Source: Trypanosoma brucei (lineage: Eukaryota). Taken from it: a stretch of DNA of 64,000 nucleotides. This document shows, piece by piece, positions 1 to 7,949 of the stretch; within the stretch, counting starts at the first letter, position 1, and each line of letters begins with the position of its first letter. The stretch spans positions 640,001 to 704,000 of the forward strand of contig CP000066.1 in assembly GCA_000002445.1 (NCBI GenBank), read 5' to 3'. The position numbers and the translations under genes are program-made. The notes under the pieces are model-generated. The model saw nothing but the letters and a program-made list of their open reading frames with translations. It was not told the origin of the DNA and ran no database searches.

Positions 1-906
1 TGTTGGGAGGCGGTTATACGGAGACAATGTCAACGTGCCAAATTCGAGTACGCAGAGATCCACCACATGCCAAAGGTAAAACTATGCGCCATGCTACAAC
101 AATGCATCGAGCTTCAAAACACTTCTCCACTACAAAAATCTCCCCCCAGTTCTGACGCTATGTTTTATTGAGCACAATTTCGTAGATGAGGGCGAGCCCT
201 GGACGTTTATCGCCCACCATCCCACTACCTTATGTAACGTGACGGACAGCAACCGAACAAAAGGGTCGTATCCTTTCGTTTTCTACACATATCACTTTGA
301 ATCCGAGAAGGAGTTCAACAGATGACAAACATAATGCAGTACGTACTAAAACAAAAAACACTTTTTACTTGAATCCCTATATCAACTCACAATCGACAGC
401 ACATATTCGACATTAACTAACTCCATCATTAAAATACACTCCACTCTAACACAGAAACAACCCAATGTGATGCTTAGTTACCATAACAAAGGAATACGCC
501 TCACGTTTCACAAACATGGGTACGAAGTCATTCCACCCTAGTACACACATTTGGTCACCTCACATTAATAACCTGTTTCTTAAACGCGTAAGGCGTTGTT
601 TAAATTTCACGTTGTCATATAATATAATATTCCATACATAATTCTGCCTGCAGAGTCCACACCATATCGACAGCTGCCTTCATTTTGTTTCAGTGCAAAC
701 GCCTAAACCCCTTCTAAAGGAGTCTGGCGTAGTATAAAGATATACAATGCTACAAATACCAGAGCAGCTAGATTGAAACACAGGTGGTGAGGAACTATCG
801 GCATCTGGGGATGAATGACTTCATTCAAATGGGCATGCACGAATGCAGCACCTTTGAAGGGACAAAAACTCGTTTTAGAAAGAAAACTGACAAATAATTT
901 GTACTC

Positions 907-1563
907 TCAGAGAAATAGGAGCAACACTGGAAAAAAAACCTGGTAGATAGGTGGTTGCAGCGGCTGAGATTTGCTTTTCTGCTGTTCCGGGGGGCGAACA
1001 GAGGAAGTTCCGTTACGTTCGCTGCCAAAAGTGGAGGAGACAGTACCTTTATTTTCGGATTTGAGGTGGCCGTCATCCTTAGAGGGTGAACCATTTTCCT
1101 CCTTTTTAGGGGTCGCAGAAACCGAACTACCATTTCTCACCGGCTCTTCAGAAAGCACAGGGCCGTACTCGGATGATGGAGGTGCCTCACCTTTGTTAGA
1201 GGCCTCGTCGCGACTTGAGTCTCCACCCGCTTCCACAACTGGTGAAGCGACTTCGGGTGTTGAGAGCCCAAGGAACTCACTAACCTTTGCGGTTACACAT
1301 CTGTGCGGTGAAAAGCAGGTCAATCCCCCGCCGCAAACGGTACAGTTCCCCTCTGCAGGTGCGCCCGAAGGAACCCTGTGTGCCAGGGTGCAGTTTTTCT
1401 GTGCATACGTCATGAGACGATTCTCCTCGTTTCTAGTTATACGGCTTTCAATTCCCAATACTTCCGTGCACTTACCCACATATCCAATTCTTCCCTCCCA
1501 TACATTCTCACACATGGCCACACGTTGAACGAAACCGAACAGTATTATTGGTAGGCACAGCAT
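907..1563 (-). CDS. Array copy 1: 218-aa predicted secreted/GPI-anchored surface glycoprotein. Signal peptide MLCLPIILFGFVQRVAMC, Cys-containing N-domain, acidic Ser/Glu/Pro-rich stalk with several N-x-S/T sites, hydrophobic C-terminus ...QVFFPVLLLFL
   Basis: ATG confirmed ('cat' at 1561-1563). Complete ORF on the same strand as every other gene. N-terminal hydrophobic signal and C-terminal hydrophobic tail. N-glycosylation sequons NCT, NGSS, NGSP, NGTS. Confidence 0.6.
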   Translation of the reverse strand: MLCLPIILFGFVQRVAMCENVWEGRIGYVGKCTEVLGIESRITRNEENRLMTYAQKNCTLAHRVPSGAPAEGNCTVCGGGLTCFSPHRCVTAKVSEFLGLSTPEVASPVVEAGGDSSRDEASNKGEAPPSSEYGPVLSEEPVRNGSSVSATPKKEENGSPSKDDGHLKSENKGTVSSTFGSERNGTSSVRPPEQQKSKSQPLQPPIYQVFFPVLLLFL

Positions 1564-2420
1564 TTCAGAATTCTACACTGCCTGAGTTGCTCCAACACCA
1601 GCGCAAAGAAAAATAATAAACACCTCATACATAACATATATCATACAGTTATGTGTGTTTATACTTTGTTTCAAAATATATCGTATTGAATACAAATAGC
1701 AGACACATGACACGAAAAAATCCCATTAAGCGTTAACATGACATAAAATACCCTATTCAGATGCAACCGAACAAAAGGGTCGTATCCTTTCATTTTCTAC
1801 GCATATCACTTTTGATCCAAGATACGGTTAAACAGGTGACAAACATAATGCAGTACGTACTAAAACAAAAAACACTTTTTACTTGAATCCCTATATCAAC
1901 TCACAATCGACAACACATATTCGACATTAACTAACTCCATCATTAAAATACACTCCACTCTAACACAGAAACAACCCAATGTGATGCTTAGTTACCATAA
2001 CAAAGGAATACGCCTCACGTTTCACAAACATGGGTACGAAGTCATTCCACCCTAGTACACACATTTGGTCACCTCACATTAATAACCTGTTTCTTAAACG
2101 CGTAAGGCGTTGTTTAAATTTCACGTTGTCATATAATATAATATTCCATACATAATTCTGCCTGCAGAGTCCACACCATATCGACAGCTGCCTTCATCTT
2201 ACTTCCAAACAAACGCCTAAAACTCTTCTAAAGGAGTCTGGCGTAGCATAAAGATATACAATGACGCAAACACCAAAGAAGCTAGATTGAAACACAGGTG
2301 GGGAGGAACTATCGGCATCTGGGGATGAATGACTTCATTCAAATGGGCATGCACGAATGCAGCACCTTTGAAGGGACAAAAACTCGTTTTAGAAAGAAAA
2401 CTGACAAATAATTTGTACTC

Positions 2421-3077
2421 TCAGAGAAATAGGAGCAACACTGAGGAAAACACCTGGTAGATAGGTGGTTGCAGCGGCTGAGATTTGCTTGTCTGCTGTT
2501 CCGGGGGGCGAACAGAGGAAGTTCCGTTACGTTCGCTGCCAAAAGTGGAGGAGACAGTACCTTTATTTTCGGATTTGAGGTGGCCGTCATCCTTAGAGGG
2601 TGAACCATTTTCCTCCTTTTTAGGGGTCGCAGAAACCGAACTACCATTTCTCACCGGCTCTTCAGAAAGCACAGGGCCGTACTCGGATGATGGAGGTGCC
2701 TCACCTTTGTTAGAGGCATCGTCGCGACTTGAGTCTCCACCCGCTTCCACAACTGGTGAAGCGACTTCGGGTGTTGAGAGCCCAAGGAACTCACTAACCT
2801 TTGCGGTTACACATCTGTGCGGTGAAAAGCAGGTCAATCCCCCGCCGCAAACGGTACAGTTCCCCTCTGCAGGTGCGCCCGAAGGAACCCTGTGTGCCAG
2901 GGTGCAGTTTTTCTGTGCATACGTCATGAGACGATTCTCCTCGTTTCTAGTTATACGGCTTTCAATTCCCAATACTTCCGTGCACTTACCCACATATCCA
3001 ATTCTTCCCTCCCATACATTCTCACACATGGCCACACGTTGAACGAAACCGAACAGTATTATTGGTAGGCACAGCAT
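2421..3077 (-). CDS. Array copy 2: 218-aa surface-like protein. Differs from copy 1 at a few residues (DDASNKG, EQQTSKSQ, ...QVFSSVLLLFL)
   Basis: ATG at 3075-3077. Same architecture as copy 1. Identical in protein to copy 3. Confidence 0.6.
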   Translation of the reverse strand: MLCLPIILFGFVQRVAMCENVWEGRIGYVGKCTEVLGIESRITRNEENRLMTYAQKNCTLAHRVPSGAPAEGNCTVCGGGLTCFSPHRCVTAKVSEFLGLSTPEVASPVVEAGGDSSRDDASNKGEAPPSSEYGPVLSEEPVRNGSSVSATPKKEENGSPSKDDGHLKSENKGTVSSTFGSERNGTSSVRPPEQQTSKSQPLQPPIYQVFSSVLLLFL

Positions 3078-3934
3078 TTCAGAATTCTACACTGCCTGAG
3101 TTGCTCCAACACCAGCGCAAAGAAAAATAATAAACACCTCATACATAACATATATCATACAGTTATGTGTGTTTATACTTTGTTTCAAAATATATCGTAT
3201 TGAATACAAATAGCAGACACATGACACGAAAAAATCCCATTAAGCGTTAACATGACATAAAATACCCTATTCAGATGCAACCGAACAAAAGGGTCGTATC
3301 CTTTCATTTTCTACGCATATCACTTTTGATCCAAGATACGGTTAAACAGGTGACAAACATAATGCAGTACGTACTAAAACAAAAAACACTTTTTACTTGA
3401 ATCCCTATATCAACTCACAATCGACAACACATATTCGACATTAACTAACTCCATCATTAAAATACACTCCACTCTAACACAGAAACAACCCAATGTGATG
3501 CTTAGTTACCATAACAAAGGAATACGCCTCACGTTTCACAAACATGGGTACGAAGTCATTCCACCCTAGTACACACATTTGGTCACCTCACATTAATAAC
3601 CTGTTTCTTAAACGCGTAAGGCGTTGTTTAAATTTCACGTTGTCATATAATATAATATTCCATACATAATTCTGCCTGCAGAGTCCACACCATATCGACA
3701 GCTGCCTTCATCTTACTTCCAAACAAACGCCTAAAACTCTTCTAAAGGAGTCTGGCGTAGCATAAAGATATACAATGACGCAAACACCAAAGAAGCTAGA
3801 TTGAAACACAGGTGGGGAGGAACTATCGGCATCTGGGGATGAATGACTTCATTCAAATGGGCATGCACGAATGCAGCACCTTTGAAGGGACAAAAACTCG
3901 TTTTAGAAAGAAAACTGACAAATAATTTGTACTC

Positions 3935-4591
3935 TCAGAGAAATAGGAGCAACACTGAGGAAAACACCTGGTAGATAGGTGGTTGCAGCGGCTGAGATTT
4001 GCTTGTCTGCTGTTCCGGGGGGCGAACAGAGGAAGTTCCGTTACGTTCGCTGCCAAAAGTGGAGGAGACAGTACCTTTATTTTCGGATTTGAGGTGGCCG
4101 TCATCCTTAGAGGGTGAACCATTTTCCTCCTTTTTAGGGGTCGCAGAAACCGAACTACCATTTCTCACCGGCTCTTCAGAAAGCACAGGGCCGTACTCGG
4201 ATGATGGAGGTGCCTCACCTTTGTTAGAGGCATCGTCGCGACTTGAGTCTCCACCCGCTTCCACAACTGGTGAAGCGACTTCGGGTGTTGAGAGCCCAAG
4301 GAACTCACTAACCTTTGCGGTTACACATCTGTGCGGTGAAAAGCAGGTCAATCCCCCGCCACAAACGGTACAGTTCCCCTCTGCAGGTGCGCCCGAAGGA
4401 ACCCTGTGTGCCAGGGTGCAGTTTTTCTGTGCATACGTCATGAGACGATTCTCCTCGTTTCTAGTTATACGGCTTTCAATTCCCAATACTTCCGTGCACT
4501 TACCCACATATCCAATTCTTCCCTCCCATACATTCTCACACATGGCCACACGTTGAACGAAACCGAACAGTATTATTGGTAGGCACAGCAT
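3935..4591 (-). CDS. Array copy 3: 218-aa surface-like protein, identical in protein sequence to copy 2
   Basis: ATG at 4589-4591. 1514 nt from copy 2. Confidence 0.6.
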   Translation of the reverse strand: MLCLPIILFGFVQRVAMCENVWEGRIGYVGKCTEVLGIESRITRNEENRLMTYAQKNCTLAHRVPSGAPAEGNCTVCGGGLTCFSPHRCVTAKVSEFLGLSTPEVASPVVEAGGDSSRDDASNKGEAPPSSEYGPVLSEEPVRNGSSVSATPKKEENGSPSKDDGHLKSENKGTVSSTFGSERNGTSSVRPPEQQTSKSQPLQPPIYQVFSSVLLLFL

Positions 4592-5448
4592 TTCAGAATT
4601 CTACACTGCCTGAGTTGCTCCAACACCAGCGCAAAGAAAAATAATAAACACCTCATACATAACATATATCATACAGTTATGTGTGTTTATACTTTGTTTC
4701 AAAATATATCGTATTGAATACAAATAGCAGACACATGACACGAAAAAATCCCATTAAGCGTTAACATGACATAAAATACCCTATTCAGATGCAACCGAAC
4801 AAAAGGGTCGTATCCTTTCGTTTTCTACACATATCACTTTTGATCCAAGATACGGTTAAACAGGTGACAAACATAATGCAGTACGTACTAAAACAAAAAA
4901 CACTTTTTACTTGAATCCCTATATCAACTCACAATCGACAACACATATTCGACATTAACTAACTCCATCATTAAAATACACTCCACTCTAACACAGCAAC
5001 AACCCAATGTGATGCTTAGTTACCATAACAAAGGAATACGCCTCACGTTTCACAAACATGGGTACGAAGTCATTCCACCCTAGTACACACATTTGGTCAC
5101 CTCACATTAATAACCTGTTTCTTAAACGCGTAAGGCGTTGTTTAAATTTCACGTTGTCATATAATATAATATTCCATACATAATTCTGCCTGCAGAGTCC
5201 ACACCATATCGACAGCTGCCTTCATCTTACTTCCAAACAAACGCCTAAAACTCTTCTAAAGGAGTCTGGCGTAGCATAAAGATATACAATGACGCAAACA
5301 CCAAAGAAGCTAGATTGAAACACAGGTGGGGAGGAACTATCGGCATCTGGGGATGAATGACTTCATTCAAATGGGCATGCACGAATGCAGCACCTTTGAA
5401 GGGACAAAAACTCGTTTTAGAAAGAAAACTGACAAATAATTTGTACTC

Positions 5449-6123
5449 TCAGAGAAATAGGAGCAACACTGGAAAAAAAACCTGGTAGATAGGTGGTTGC
5501 AGCGGCTGAGATTTGCTTTTCTGCTGTTCCGGGGGGCGAACAGAGGAAGTTCCGTTACGTTCGCTGCCAAAAGTGGAGGAGACAGTACCTTTATTTTCGG
5601 ATTTGAGGTGGCCGTCATCCTTAGAGGGTGAACCATTTTCCTCCTTTTTAGGGGTCGCAGAAACCGAACTACCATTTCTCACCGGCTCTTCAGAAAGCAC
5701 AGGGCCGTACTCGGATGATGGAGGTGCCTCACCTTTGTTAGAGGCCTCGTCGCGACTTGAGTCTCCACCCGCTTCCACAACTGGTGAAGCGACTGCGGGT
5801 GTTGGGAGCCCAAGGAACTCACTAACCTTTGCAGTGACACATCTATAATTGAAAGGACAACGCAAGGTTCCCCCGCCACAAACGGTACAGTTCCCGTCAG
5901 TGGTTGCGCCAGATGGTACGCTTCGGATGGGAGTGCAGTTCGCTTCCGCATACTTCACGAGACGATTCTCTTCTGCTACGCCCGCTGGAGCCTTAATTTT
6001 CAGCAAATCCGTACACATATCCACAACTCCAACTCGCGTTCCCCATCCCTTCCCATAAGTAGCAACAATTTGAACCAATCCCGCGAACAGGGTTAATACA
6101 CAGACACACACAGGTCTCGTCAT
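5449..6123 (-). CDS. Array copy 4 (mosaic): 224 aa from the first plausible ATG. Signal peptide MTRPVCVCVLTLFAGLVQIVATYG. The N-terminal Cys domain is divergent (about 50% identity). The C-terminal stalk and tail match copy 1
   Basis: The ORF-track start at 6210 is a TTG. In-frame ATGs lie at 6204 and 6123, and the 6123 one precedes a proper signal peptide. The conserved core CTVCGGG...RCVTAKVSEFLGL is retained. Confidence 0.5.
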   Translation of the reverse strand: MTRPVCVCVLTLFAGLVQIVATYGKGWGTRVGVVDMCTDLLKIKAPAGVAEENRLVKYAEANCTPIRSVPSGATTDGNCTVCGGGTLRCPFNYRCVTAKVSEFLGLPTPAVASPVVEAGGDSSRDEASNKGEAPPSSEYGPVLSEEPVRNGSSVSATPKKEENGSPSKDDGHLKSENKGTVSSTFGSERNGTSSVRPPEQQKSKSQPLQPPIYQVFFPVLLLFL

Positions 6124-7031
6124 TAATCTTTTACTAACATAACAATAAAAGCAAAAAAACTTCTTTGCAGAGCAATTAACTCGCTTTCTCTCATGTTTAA
6201 ACATTGTCAAGTTACCTTTTGTTTAATATACAGAGCCAGTTAACCACTCAGAAAACAACCAGTGAGTATAATCAGCGTCCACAATACTTATCCGTATGGG
6301 AAGAAATGAAATATGAAGTTACGTCTTTTAAAATCTTTATCAAAAGCAGCAGCCAAGCGACCGGAGACTCACATTTATCAAGTGCGAGTAGGGGGCATCT
6401 GTGGTTCAATAACATAAAAACACATGCAGTAACAAGTTTTCGCAGATAAATATTATGGAGTACCACCTATATAAGTCCAAGTCCACACAAAAAAAACCCA
6501 AGCAAAAGCAAATACACAGTAAAGAAATAATTACAAACACATTTGATAGCACCGTCTGTTGATAGCAAATACTTAAACAGCGAAGAAGAAAGACGTTCAA
6601 AGCATTACAAAACACATCGTGGAGCAGTTCTGTAGAAACGATTACAAATGGGAAATAACCAACTCCCACGAAACAGTACATCACTGTAGCCAGTCCATCA
6701 AGAAAAATTGGCAGCGTCTCGGCGCGTGATTCAACTCTTTTCGAACGCTAGACAGCATCCACAACACTAAGCAGTTAGGTACAAATATAGATCACTACAT
6801 AGCAAAAGCAAAATGCGGTAAGTACCGCAAAGGGGTCCCCCATCCTTACGCTGTTCTATTATTTATTTCGCTTCTTCCACTTTATTGCAGTCTACAATTA
6901 TAGGCGCTTTCTCCCATCATATATTAAAGCATAATAGCGCGAGAAAGAACAAAAGGTCATAGATTAACGTATCGAGCTAGTGTGAGGGGTGATGCTCTGA
7001 GGCAGTATTTGTATCTAGTTTAGTGACGGAT

Positions 7032-7949
7032 TTATCCGGTGATAAAGCATACAATTGCGACAAGGAGGTTCTGTATCGCTCCATATCTCACGTTGTTTCC
7101 TTTTTTGTTTTCTGGTTTGCGGTCGATTCTTCCTGTGTTTGATACAATTCCTGCACCTGCTGCAACTGTATCATCCCGTCCGCGCACTGGTTCCTCCCTT
7201 CCTGGGTCTGCATCCTGTTTCCCATTGGTCGTCGTGCCATCTTCTGCAGCATCGCGCTGGTGATCATTCACTGTACCTTTTTCTGGTGAAGATTCCCCTC
7301 GAGGGTGAGTATGCTTCCCTCCCTGAGTTGCTCCTCCCTTTTCTGGTTCCTTTCGGGTCAAGCCCTCACCTCCAGCTCCGTCCTTTTTCCCCGAAGCTCC
7401 CCGCTTCTCCCCAGCAGTTCCCCGCTTTTCCCCCGGACTTTGCTGATCTTCCTTTGGAGTTTCCTCACCTTCCCCCGAAGCTTCCTGCTCCTCCCCCTCA
7501 CTTTTGGGAGCACTGCTCGCTGTCTCTTCGTCGTCCGAACCGCTACCCTTAGTTGTGTCTGAGGGTCCCTGTTCAGACGCGGCAGACTGCTCTACCGTCT
7601 CTTCTGTAGGGACCTGTTGTGTTATACTCCGCCAGTCGGAGTCGGAGCATGTTGTGGCATTGAGTGAATCCTCGCTTGAGTCCTCGTCCGTGCAATTAAG
7701 GGTGTGCAGCCGGTGGCCGTTTCCATGAAAAATGGCGTACACTTTGAGCTTCAGCTTGAAATATCCCTGTGGTTGTCCCTTTCCGATCAGAAGCACAGGA
7801 GTGTTTGTGCAGTTGGCAGGGTGCCACTTGCCCTTCCATCTGCACAGCGCCCCTTCCGCTTCATTATGCAGACAGTCACACCTGAAAGTCACTGCTGAAG
7901 ATCCCAAAACTACACAACTTGCTAGAAACAACGCTGTAAATGTCAACAT
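7032..7949 (-). CDS. 305-aa predicted secreted/membrane protein. Signal peptide, Cys motif (FRCDCLHNEAEGALCRWKGKWHPANCTNT), long acidic Gly/Glu/Lys-rich low-complexity region, C-terminal hydrophobic segment LLVAIVCFITG
   Basis: ATG confirmed at 7947-7949. Compositional architecture resembles a surface protein. No recognisable enzymatic motifs. Confidence 0.45.
   Translation of the reverse strand: MLTFTALFLASCVVLGSSAVTFRCDCLHNEAEGALCRWKGKWHPANCTNTPVLLIGKGQPQGYFKLKLKVYAIFHGNGHRLHTLNCTDEDSSEDSLNATTCSDSDWRSITQQVPTEETVEQSAASEQGPSDTTKGSGSDDEETASSAPKSEGEEQEASGEGEETPKEDQQSPGEKRGTAGEKRGASGKKDGAGGEGLTRKEPEKGGATQGGKHTHPRGESSPEKGTVNDHQRDAAEDGTTTNGKQDADPGREEPVRGRDDTVAAGAGIVSNTGRIDRKPENKKGNNVRYGAIQNLLVAIVCFITG

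Follow-up and report, generated by a model that had tools for sequence, protein, structure and literature searches.

What keeps one part of a tandem gene family nearly uniform while another part of one member stays distinct? This question is raised by an array of four genes in a stretch of 64,000 nucleotides (hereafter the window; contig CP000066.1, positions 640,001 to 704,000) from chromosome 3 (1,653,225 bp) of Trypanosoma brucei brucei TREU927. The array corresponds to Tb927.3.2550-2580, because the proteins encoded in the window match AAZ10289-AAZ10293 exactly and AAZ10293 is Tb927.3.2590; locus tags were given to the single copies by gene order. The likely answer, in our judgement, is that recurrent homologous recombination, comprising both unequal exchange and short-tract conversion, has acted over two old gene types.

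Array structure and the composite copy 4

The proteins of the array share a common layout. A hydrophobic N-terminal leader is followed by a domain of ~70 residues with six conserved Cys residues and two NCT sequons, then by a Ser/Pro/Glu-rich stalk with three more sequons and a hydrophobic tail of the glycosylphosphatidylinositol (GPI) signal type. When the window is compared with itself position by position at an offset of 1514 bp, near-identity begins exactly at 249 and ends at ~5833. Tandem Repeats Finder did not report the array, the period of 1514 bp being above its 500-bp limit. Transcription of the array runs along the minus strand and reaches copy 4 first. Its main features are as follows (CDS, coding sequence; UTR, untranslated region; dN and dS, nonsynonymous and synonymous divergence).

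249..5833, minus strand: tandem array, 3.69 units of 1514 bp, near-identity 97-99.9%
907..1563, minus strand: copy 1 CDS, 218 amino acids (aa), Tb927.3.2550, identical to AAZ10289
2421..3077, minus strand: copy 2 CDS, 218 aa, Tb927.3.2560, identical to AAZ10290/91
3935..4591, minus strand: copy 3 CDS, 218 aa, Tb927.3.2570, protein the same as that of copy 2
5449..6123, minus strand: copy 4 CDS from the signal-peptide ATG, 224 aa, Tb927.3.2580, clusters with AAZ10292
4791..5833, minus strand: portion of unit 4 that is homogenised with units 1-3, comprising stalk, GPI-type tail, 3'UTR and spacer, 11 of 1039 sites differing from copy 3
5834..6123, minus strand: module specific to copy 4 (signal peptide and most of the six-Cys domain), dS ~1.07 and dN/dS 0.37 versus copies 1-3

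Copies 2 and 3 are 99.93% identical, with one differing base (2847 versus 4361) in 1514. Identity is 97.7% between copies 1 and 2, 97.1% between copies 1 and 4, and 98.9% between copies 3 and 4 over the 1040 nt that they share.

A preliminary description of this locus, made from the sequence, had held that copy 4 keeps the stalk and tail of its neighbours but carries a different signal peptide and Cys domain. This proves correct: stalk, tail and 3'UTR are ~99% identical to those of the other copies, whereas the signal peptide and Cys domain are divergent, with dS of ~1. The same description placed the end of homology near 5830, inside the copy-4 CDS. Near-identity does stop there, but homology itself continues to the start codon. 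Specifically, copy 4 retains 75.7% nucleotide identity to the other copies past 5833, up to 5973, and homology at the protein level reaches the start codon; single copy-4 differences are already present at 5805 and 5795, before the boundary of near-identity. Upstream of the ATG at 6123, no homology to the spacer preceding copies 1-3 was detected.

Divergence along the gene follows the same partition. In the Cys domain, dS between the two gene types is 1.07, and between copy-4 orthologues it is 0 to 0.08. For the stalk, the values are 0.02 among TREU927 copies and 0.14-0.16 between the subspecies. The N-terminal module of copy 4 is orthologous by position to copy 4 of T. b. gambiense and T. b. 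equiperdum, and it is anciently diverged from that of copies 1-3.

The annotated start of copy 4 differs between records. Position 6210, given previously as the edge of copy 4, is the edge of a mechanically called open reading frame (ORF) that opens with TTG, and the GenBank entry AAZ10292 starts at 6204 (MFKHERKRV..., 251 aa), which puts 27 extra residues (6124-6204, minus strand) before the hydrophobic leader. In T. equiperdum OVI, annotated copy-4 proteins open with the methionine of MTRPV (223-224 aa). As the true start of copy 4, the ATG at 6123 is more plausible.

Site patterns within the array

The part of the unit shared by all four copies contains 38 variable sites. The preliminary description had grouped copies 1 and 4 against copies 2 and 3 on the basis of three peptide differences, and every peptide string that it quoted is found in the ORF translations. 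Indeed, all eight informative sites in the shared part (278, 287, 930, 931, 932, 937, 977 and 1204 in copy-1 coordinates) support this grouping and none supports another; they encode DEASNKG/DDASNKG, QQK/QQT and FFPV/FSSV. Another 27 sites are private to copy 1, falling in tight clusters at 299-322 and 684-788 plus one site at 399, and three are private to copy 4. Outside the shared part, a site in the N-terminal part (1333=2847 versus 4361=5878) groups copies 1 and 2 against copies 3 and 4, and is the sole informative site that conflicts with the pairing of 1 with 4. The tracts defined by these sites are listed here.

5472..5519 (copy 1: 930-977), minus strand: tract at the 3' end of the CDS in which copies 4 and 1 share TREU927-specific states (QQK, FFPV), copies 2 and 3 having the state of all T. 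b. gambiense and T. b. equiperdum copies
684..788, minus strand: copy-1 3'UTR tract with 17 differences from copies 2-4, in the T. b. gambiense state at 14
299..322, minus strand: cluster of 9 substitutions within 24 bp, close to the distal array end, seen in copy 1 and in no other copy of the three genomes
278..287 (copy 4: 4820, 4829), minus strand: two more sites grouping 1 and 4 versus 2 and 3

The arrangement of these sites is far from random. Site-pattern labels along the 38 positions form 6 runs, compared with 17.9 expected by permutation (p=5e-5), and up to 17 variable sites fall within 110 bp (p=2e-4). Small inversions were considered as a source of the clusters at 299-322 and 684-788, and none was found. 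Moreover, the nearest relative of copy 4 switches along the unit. Over the last 70 nt of its CDS, copy 4 is identical to copy 1 and differs from copy 3 at 5 sites; across the 3'UTR tract its differences from copies 1 and 3 number 17 and 0, respectively; near the end of the unit they are 9 and 0; and over the last 46 nt they turn again, to 0 and 2.

Independent point mutation after tandem duplication, with no recombination, would be compatible with one aspect of these data, which is that the four copies have no incompatible informative sites in their shared part. However, it must contend with the runs statistic (p=5e-5), with 17 substitutions packed into 110 bp beside hundreds of invariant bases, and with a gene pair whose dS is ~1 for the 5' module but 0.02 for the 3' module.

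A second simple history invokes unequal crossing-over alone, with no gene conversion. An internal unit would lately have been duplicated to give copies 2 and 3, whereas the terminal copies escape homogenisation and drift. The single difference in 1514 sites between copies 2 and 3, the variation in copy number between assemblies (3 versus 4) and the position of copy 1 as the most divergent in the shared part are all consistent with this history. Yet each crossing-over event leaves one junction, which cannot give several patches of 10-110 bp with alternating affinity. Furthermore, copies 1 and 4 sit at opposite ends of the array and share five TREU927-specific states, but in the adjacent 3'UTR copy 4 agrees with copies 2 and 3. 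Unequal crossing-over as the sole process is unlikely on this evidence.

Comparison between subspecies and recombination tests

Strict phylogenetic incongruence requires an outgroup, because no sites in the shared part conflict among the four copies taken by themselves, and private sites carry no information on topology when there are only four sequences. The T. b. gambiense DAL972 locus (GCA_000210295.1) carries one copy-4-type gene and three downstream-type genes with a period of 1519 bp, and the T. b. equiperdum assembly GCA_003543875.1 carries one copy-4-type and two downstream-type genes (L002 6871-10660). Together with a 1175-bp contig from T. equiperdum OVI (CZPT02000830.1), these were used for an alignment of twelve units in gene orientation, and a block map was drawn from the eight units of T. 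b. brucei and T. b. gambiense. The array thus numbers four genes each in T. b. brucei and T. b. gambiense but three in the T. b. equiperdum assembly, where the lower number represents either copy-number variation or a collapsed repeat.

The block map begins with ~70 sites in columns 18-230 that split copy-4-type from downstream-type genes in both subspecies, where the genes are orthologous by position. Within this region, a six-site patch encoding EENRL (columns 155-164) has the copy-4 state in copies 1-3 of TREU927 and differs in copies 1-3 of T. b. gambiense. Next, 15 consecutive sites in columns 261-290 are of the copy-4 type in copies 1-3 of both T. b. gambiense and T. b. equiperdum, which encode the loop TLRCPFNYRC, whereas copies 1-3 of TREU927 encode LTCFSPHRC. 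From this difference it follows that the homogenisation boundary lies ~60-100 nt further 5' in T. b. gambiense. The loop is a distinct feature of the family:

5833..5862, minus strand: hypervariable Cys5-Cys6 loop (TLRCPFNYRC in copy 4); LTCFSPHRC at 1291-1317 in copy 1 and LRCWGEHRC in the OVI contig

The OVI contig (CZPT02000830.1, 1-1175) holds a copy-4-type gene with this third version of the loop and a 3-nt deletion that it shares with TREU927 copies 1-3. Because a 50-kb contig of OVI carries a standard copy-4 gene as well, CZPT02000830.1 may be a second allele or an extra copy.

Further 3', ~40 sites in columns 367-764 and 915-1241 are fixed between the subspecies and common to all paralogues within a genome, which is the hallmark of concerted evolution. 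Defined as paralogues within a genome being closer than positional orthologues, concerted evolution holds for the stalk, tail and 3'UTR and fails for the 5' 290 nt. Two smaller blocks cut across this pattern. At five sites in columns 604-651, TREU927 copies 1 and 4 share a state found only in TREU927, and copies 2 and 3 agree with all other sequences. At 14 sites in columns 793-897, copy 1 alone among the TREU927 copies agrees with T. b. gambiense. The three splits (columns 367-764 with 915-1241, 604-651 and 793-897) are mutually incompatible, and each is contiguous.

Formal tests agree with the block map. The pairwise homoplasy index (PHI) for the T. b. brucei and T. b. gambiense units has a mean of 0.327 and an observed value of 0.038 (p=5e-4). 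A parsimony breakpoint scan over all 105 six-taxon trees, with 200 permutations of site order, gives a tree length of 273 for a single tree, 218 with one breakpoint and 210 with four; the lowest one-breakpoint length among the 200 permutations was 264. Breakpoints fall after columns 328, 651, 897 and 1293, which correspond to window positions ~5795, 5472, 5226 and 4834, and the best tree differs from segment to segment. The preliminary description had set segmental gene conversion or recombination against divergence with no phylogenetic incongruence along the unit. Among the four copies alone there is indeed no incongruence, but with the T. b. gambiense units it is strong. Segmental exchange is upheld by PHI, by the parsimony breakpoints, by the incompatible contiguous blocks and by the published analysis described below. 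Comparison with other strains, which had been suggested as a check, likewise reveals variation in copy number between assemblies (3 versus 4 genes) and in mosaic structure, in the form of the shifted boundary and of T. b. gambiense-like tracts in single copies. Simple divergence by point mutation fails on four counts, namely the clustering of sites, the incompatible blocks, a PHI of p<0.001 with an outgroup and a parsimony gain far beyond that of the permutations, and we regard it as extremely improbable.

The array and its mosaic nature are already known, having been published as recombining and concertedly evolving. The same locus is array 13 (Tb927.3.2550) of Jackson (2007, BMC Evol Biol 7:54; PMC1855330), tabulated with Ds 0.156 and Dn 0.086 in a paper that treats concerted evolution, allelic gene conversion and phylogenetic affinities that are inconsistent along an array as general features of T. 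brucei arrays. For the same array, Table 2 of Jackson et al. (2010, PLoS NTD 4:e658; PMC2854126) lists 4 and 4 copies in T. b. brucei and T. b. gambiense, three shared isoforms and one unique isoform per subspecies, a PHI mean of 0.328 and observed value of 0.038 (p<0.001), and 0 breakpoints by the likelihood ratio test (LRT) and 4 by GARD; mosaics are reported there in 31 of 35 variable arrays. Our recomputed PHI values (0.327/0.038) and 4+4 copies reproduce the published figures. In the portions of these two papers available to us, array 13 appears as table rows only. Relative to those rows, our analysis contributes a map of the tracts, the displacement of the homogenisation boundary from one subspecies to the other, a third version of the loop in OVI and the polarity of the 1 and 4 versus 2 and 3 grouping.

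Might the pattern instead come from the assembly, with 1.5-kb repeats mis-assembled or merged across TREU927 haplotypes? The reference is of the Sanger era and its source is diploid and heterozygous, and near-identical internal copies are what unplaceable reads would be expected to yield. However, GCA_000210295.1 and GCA_003543875.1 independently show one copy-4-type gene followed by two or three downstream-type genes, with a period of 1519 bp. In addition, the order in which copies were placed in TREU927 has no bearing on the shift of the boundary or on the concerted evolution seen in the stalk. An artefact is accordingly improbable as a general explanation.

The blocks, the incompatible splits and the concerted pattern are direct observations; the mechanism behind them, the identity of the donors as paralogues or alleles and the surface location of the protein are inferred. 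The recombination model has three layers. Two gene types, one represented by the first-transcribed copy 4 and the other by the downstream copies 1-3, would be older than the split of the T. brucei subspecies and would have kept their differences both upstream of the genes and over the 5' 290 nt. Homologous recombination would repeatedly homogenise the stalk, tail, 3'UTR and spacer within each genome, which is concerted evolution. Unequal exchange would alter copy number and may have made copies 2 and 3 virtually identical, and short-tract gene conversion over ~10-110 bp would yield patches. The 5' limit of homogenisation and the short tracts would then vary between strains and between copies, such that mosaics arise; candidates are the loop of T. 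b. gambiense copies 1-3, the EENRL patch, the T. b. gambiense-like tracts in single copies and the grouping of 1 and 4 versus 2 and 3.

Which sequences served as donors is a separate matter. The loop tract of T. b. gambiense has a copy-4-type sequence as its donor, and its transfer is an exchange between paralogues. The donor of the TREU927 tracts is either an allele or a paralogue. Since several of these tracts agree with T. b. gambiense, they may have come from an allele or haplotype and not from an adjacent paralogue. Taken further, this idea holds that the T. b. gambiense-like tracts and the grouping of 1 and 4 versus 2 and 3 come from allelic recombination or conversion with a second haplotype, T. 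b. gambiense-like and in circulation within T. brucei, and not from exchange among adjacent copies of one chromosome, so that mosaicism is imported from the population. In its favor, copies 2 and 3 agree with all copies of T. b. gambiense, T. b. equiperdum and OVI at five of the eight sites, 14 of the 17 sites of the copy-1 3'UTR tract are in the T. b. gambiense state, and allelic gene conversion in T. brucei arrays is among the general features described in the 2007 paper (PMC1855330). One simple tract does not fit, however, because a TREU927-specific site at column 630 interrupts the T. b. gambiense-like sites of copies 2 and 3. Moreover, the loop of T. b. gambiense copies 1-3 matches copy 4 of its own array, as paralogue exchange would have it, and allelic and paralogous exchange do not exclude each other. 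An allelic origin of these tracts is a possibility to be taken seriously, although we do not favor it. The grouping of 1 and 4 versus 2 and 3 fits either kind of donor and does not tell the two apart.

Several considerations weigh against recurrent recombination as the explanation, or limit its reach. When applied to the four window copies alone, PHI gives p=1, with eight informative sites and zero incompatible ones in the shared part, and the case within the array is built on the clustering of sites, not on tree conflict. For patch 1 of TREU927 (a variable stretch considered below), for its loop and for the copy-1 cluster at 299-322, no donors were found in the databases. The data are reference assemblies of a diploid organism, in which collapsed or chimeric 1.5-kb repeats could create or erase patches, and part of the TREU927 pattern may reflect the merging of haplotypes in the assembly. 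Finally, the signal peptide, GPI anchoring and surface exposure of the protein are predictions from its sequence.

Family, divergence and genomic context

The extent to which the array differs between subspecies is unusual. Between T. b. brucei and T. b. gambiense, the CDS is 89.5% identical for copy 1 and 95.0% for copy 4, compared with 98.1% and 99.1% for flanking intergenic DNA, 99.7% for the flanking helicase gene (dS 0.012) and a genome-wide coding mean of 99.2%. In the downstream-type positional orthologues, the changes are confined to patch 1 (13 of 27 residues) and to the Cys5-Cys6 loop (5 of 9), and the 18 and 17 codons that flank these two cassettes are identical at the protein level between subspecies. 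Synonymous divergence in the cassettes ranges from 0.4 to saturated, versus 0.012 in the helicase gene, and at least three versions of the loop are in circulation.

It had been suggested that shuffling of modules is a route to antigenic or functional diversification. Substitution ratios give this no support. Pairwise dN/dS is 0.27-0.44 in all modules, dS equals or exceeds dN in both variable patches, and a ratio above 1 in exposed regions, as antigenic variation of the usual type would have it, was not observed. Likewise, protein searches returned no large donor archive, but only the four local copies and two distant paralogues. One might still imagine that patch 1 and the loop represent ancient allelic cassettes of a surface protein of the bloodstream stage: balancing selection exerted by the host would maintain them, and short-tract conversion would shuffle them onto a fixed disulphide scaffold. 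We consider this doubtful; if true, the cassettes would be a small invariant-antigen counterpart of the formation of mosaic variant surface glycoprotein (VSG) genes.

The array protein is probably a small surface glycoprotein specific to T. brucei, with a stalk that is probably disordered. A Pfam scan of copy 1, copy 4 and the neighbor Tb927.3.2590 gave no family, and a PDB sequence search with the family profile gave no match. An AlphaFold2 model built from an alignment of six sequences has a mean predicted local distance difference test (pLDDT) score of 41, and ~30 in the stalk, which is too poor for a fold search. Protein searches of 5.8 billion clusters and 1.84 billion representatives returned only proteins of T. 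brucei subspecies. The sole relatives in the profile search of the 1.84 billion representatives are Tb927.3.600 (E=4.3e-11) and Tb927.3.5670 (E=5e-10), both on T. brucei chromosome 3. The hmmsearch match to Tb927.3.600 is nearly full-length. Across the array proteins and these relatives, the six Cys residues, both NCT sequons and a C-terminal QQxSxS motif are invariant.

In Table S1 of the cell-surface phylome (Jackson et al., 2013; PMC3605285), Tb927.3.600 is the example gene of Fam5, a family of 8 genes entered as specific to T. brucei, with both a signal peptide and a GPI signal, and with transcript values higher in bloodstream than in procyclic forms. The same source describes Fam4-7 as typically arranged in tandem arrays beside strand-switch regions and expressed preferentially in bloodstream forms. 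The array genes resemble Tb927.3.600 and Fam5 in being T. brucei-specific, in their predicted signal peptide and GPI signal and in keeping the six Cys residues, but differ in that identity is only ~30%. From these likenesses, we infer that the array genes belong to Fam5. A literature search under Tb927, Tb427 and Tbg972 identifiers found no functional studies of the genes Tb927.3.2550-2580.

Two better-known systems invite comparison. The ISG65 array (Tb927.2.3270-3320), a worked example in PMC2854126, similarly comprises tandem surface glycoprotein genes with breakpoints in both CDS and 3'UTR and with subspecies-specific recombinants. ISG65, however, has been characterised as a type-I transmembrane protein of bloodstream forms and has more copies (6 and 12), whereas the proteins of the present family are small and uncharacterised, with a predicted GPI anchor.

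Mosaic VSG formation is alike in that short-tract homologous recombination builds mosaic surface-protein genes in T. brucei. VSG switching draws on an archive of more than a thousand donors, uses a single active expression site and works within an infection. In contrast, the present array has four local copies and two distant paralogues, and its mosaics are fixed differences between strains. The locus is a clean small example of a process documented across T. brucei arrays and introduces no new principle. Recombination would even out one part of the gene, a boundary within the CDS would keep the other part distinct, and a shift of that boundary between strains would generate new isoforms. Copies should not be treated as interchangeable between strains, a caution that matters for diagnostic or vaccine candidates and for short-read mapping.

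The gene upstream of copy 4, Tb927.3.2590 (7032-7949, minus strand; AAZ10293), has the same build as the array proteins, with a leader, a Cys-rich N-terminal domain, an acidic and Gly-rich stalk and a hydrophobic tail. It was considered as a distant paralogue of the array genes, but BLASTP gave low-complexity matches only. Its CDS is 94.9% identical between T. b. brucei and T. b. gambiense (dN/dS 0.9), compared with 98-99% for adjoining DNA, and the differences concentrate in a region of 21-nt repeats at ~7428-7477.

One report (PMC4150806) places Tb427.03.2590 among the few transcripts that rise at least 2-fold on removal of base J, as confirmed by reverse-transcription quantitative PCR, and ties genes of this kind to termination that depends on J/H3.V and occurs short of the end of a transcription unit. 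All 16 ORFs of at least 250 aa in the window (1-64000) lie on the minus strand, and GC skew stays negative from end to end; the window therefore belongs to a single long polycistronic unit, in which the array is close to the downstream end. The array (249-6204), lying downstream of Tb927.3.2590 in the same unit, may share the J/H3.V regulation. Beyond the left edge of the window, the downstream neighbor of the array is the VSG-related gene Tb927.3.2540.

Two further ORFs, one of 102 aa on the minus strand (825-1133) and one of 185 aa on the plus strand (971-1528), reappear in every unit only because they lie in repeated DNA. Both overlap the real CDS and most likely result from mechanical ORF calling.

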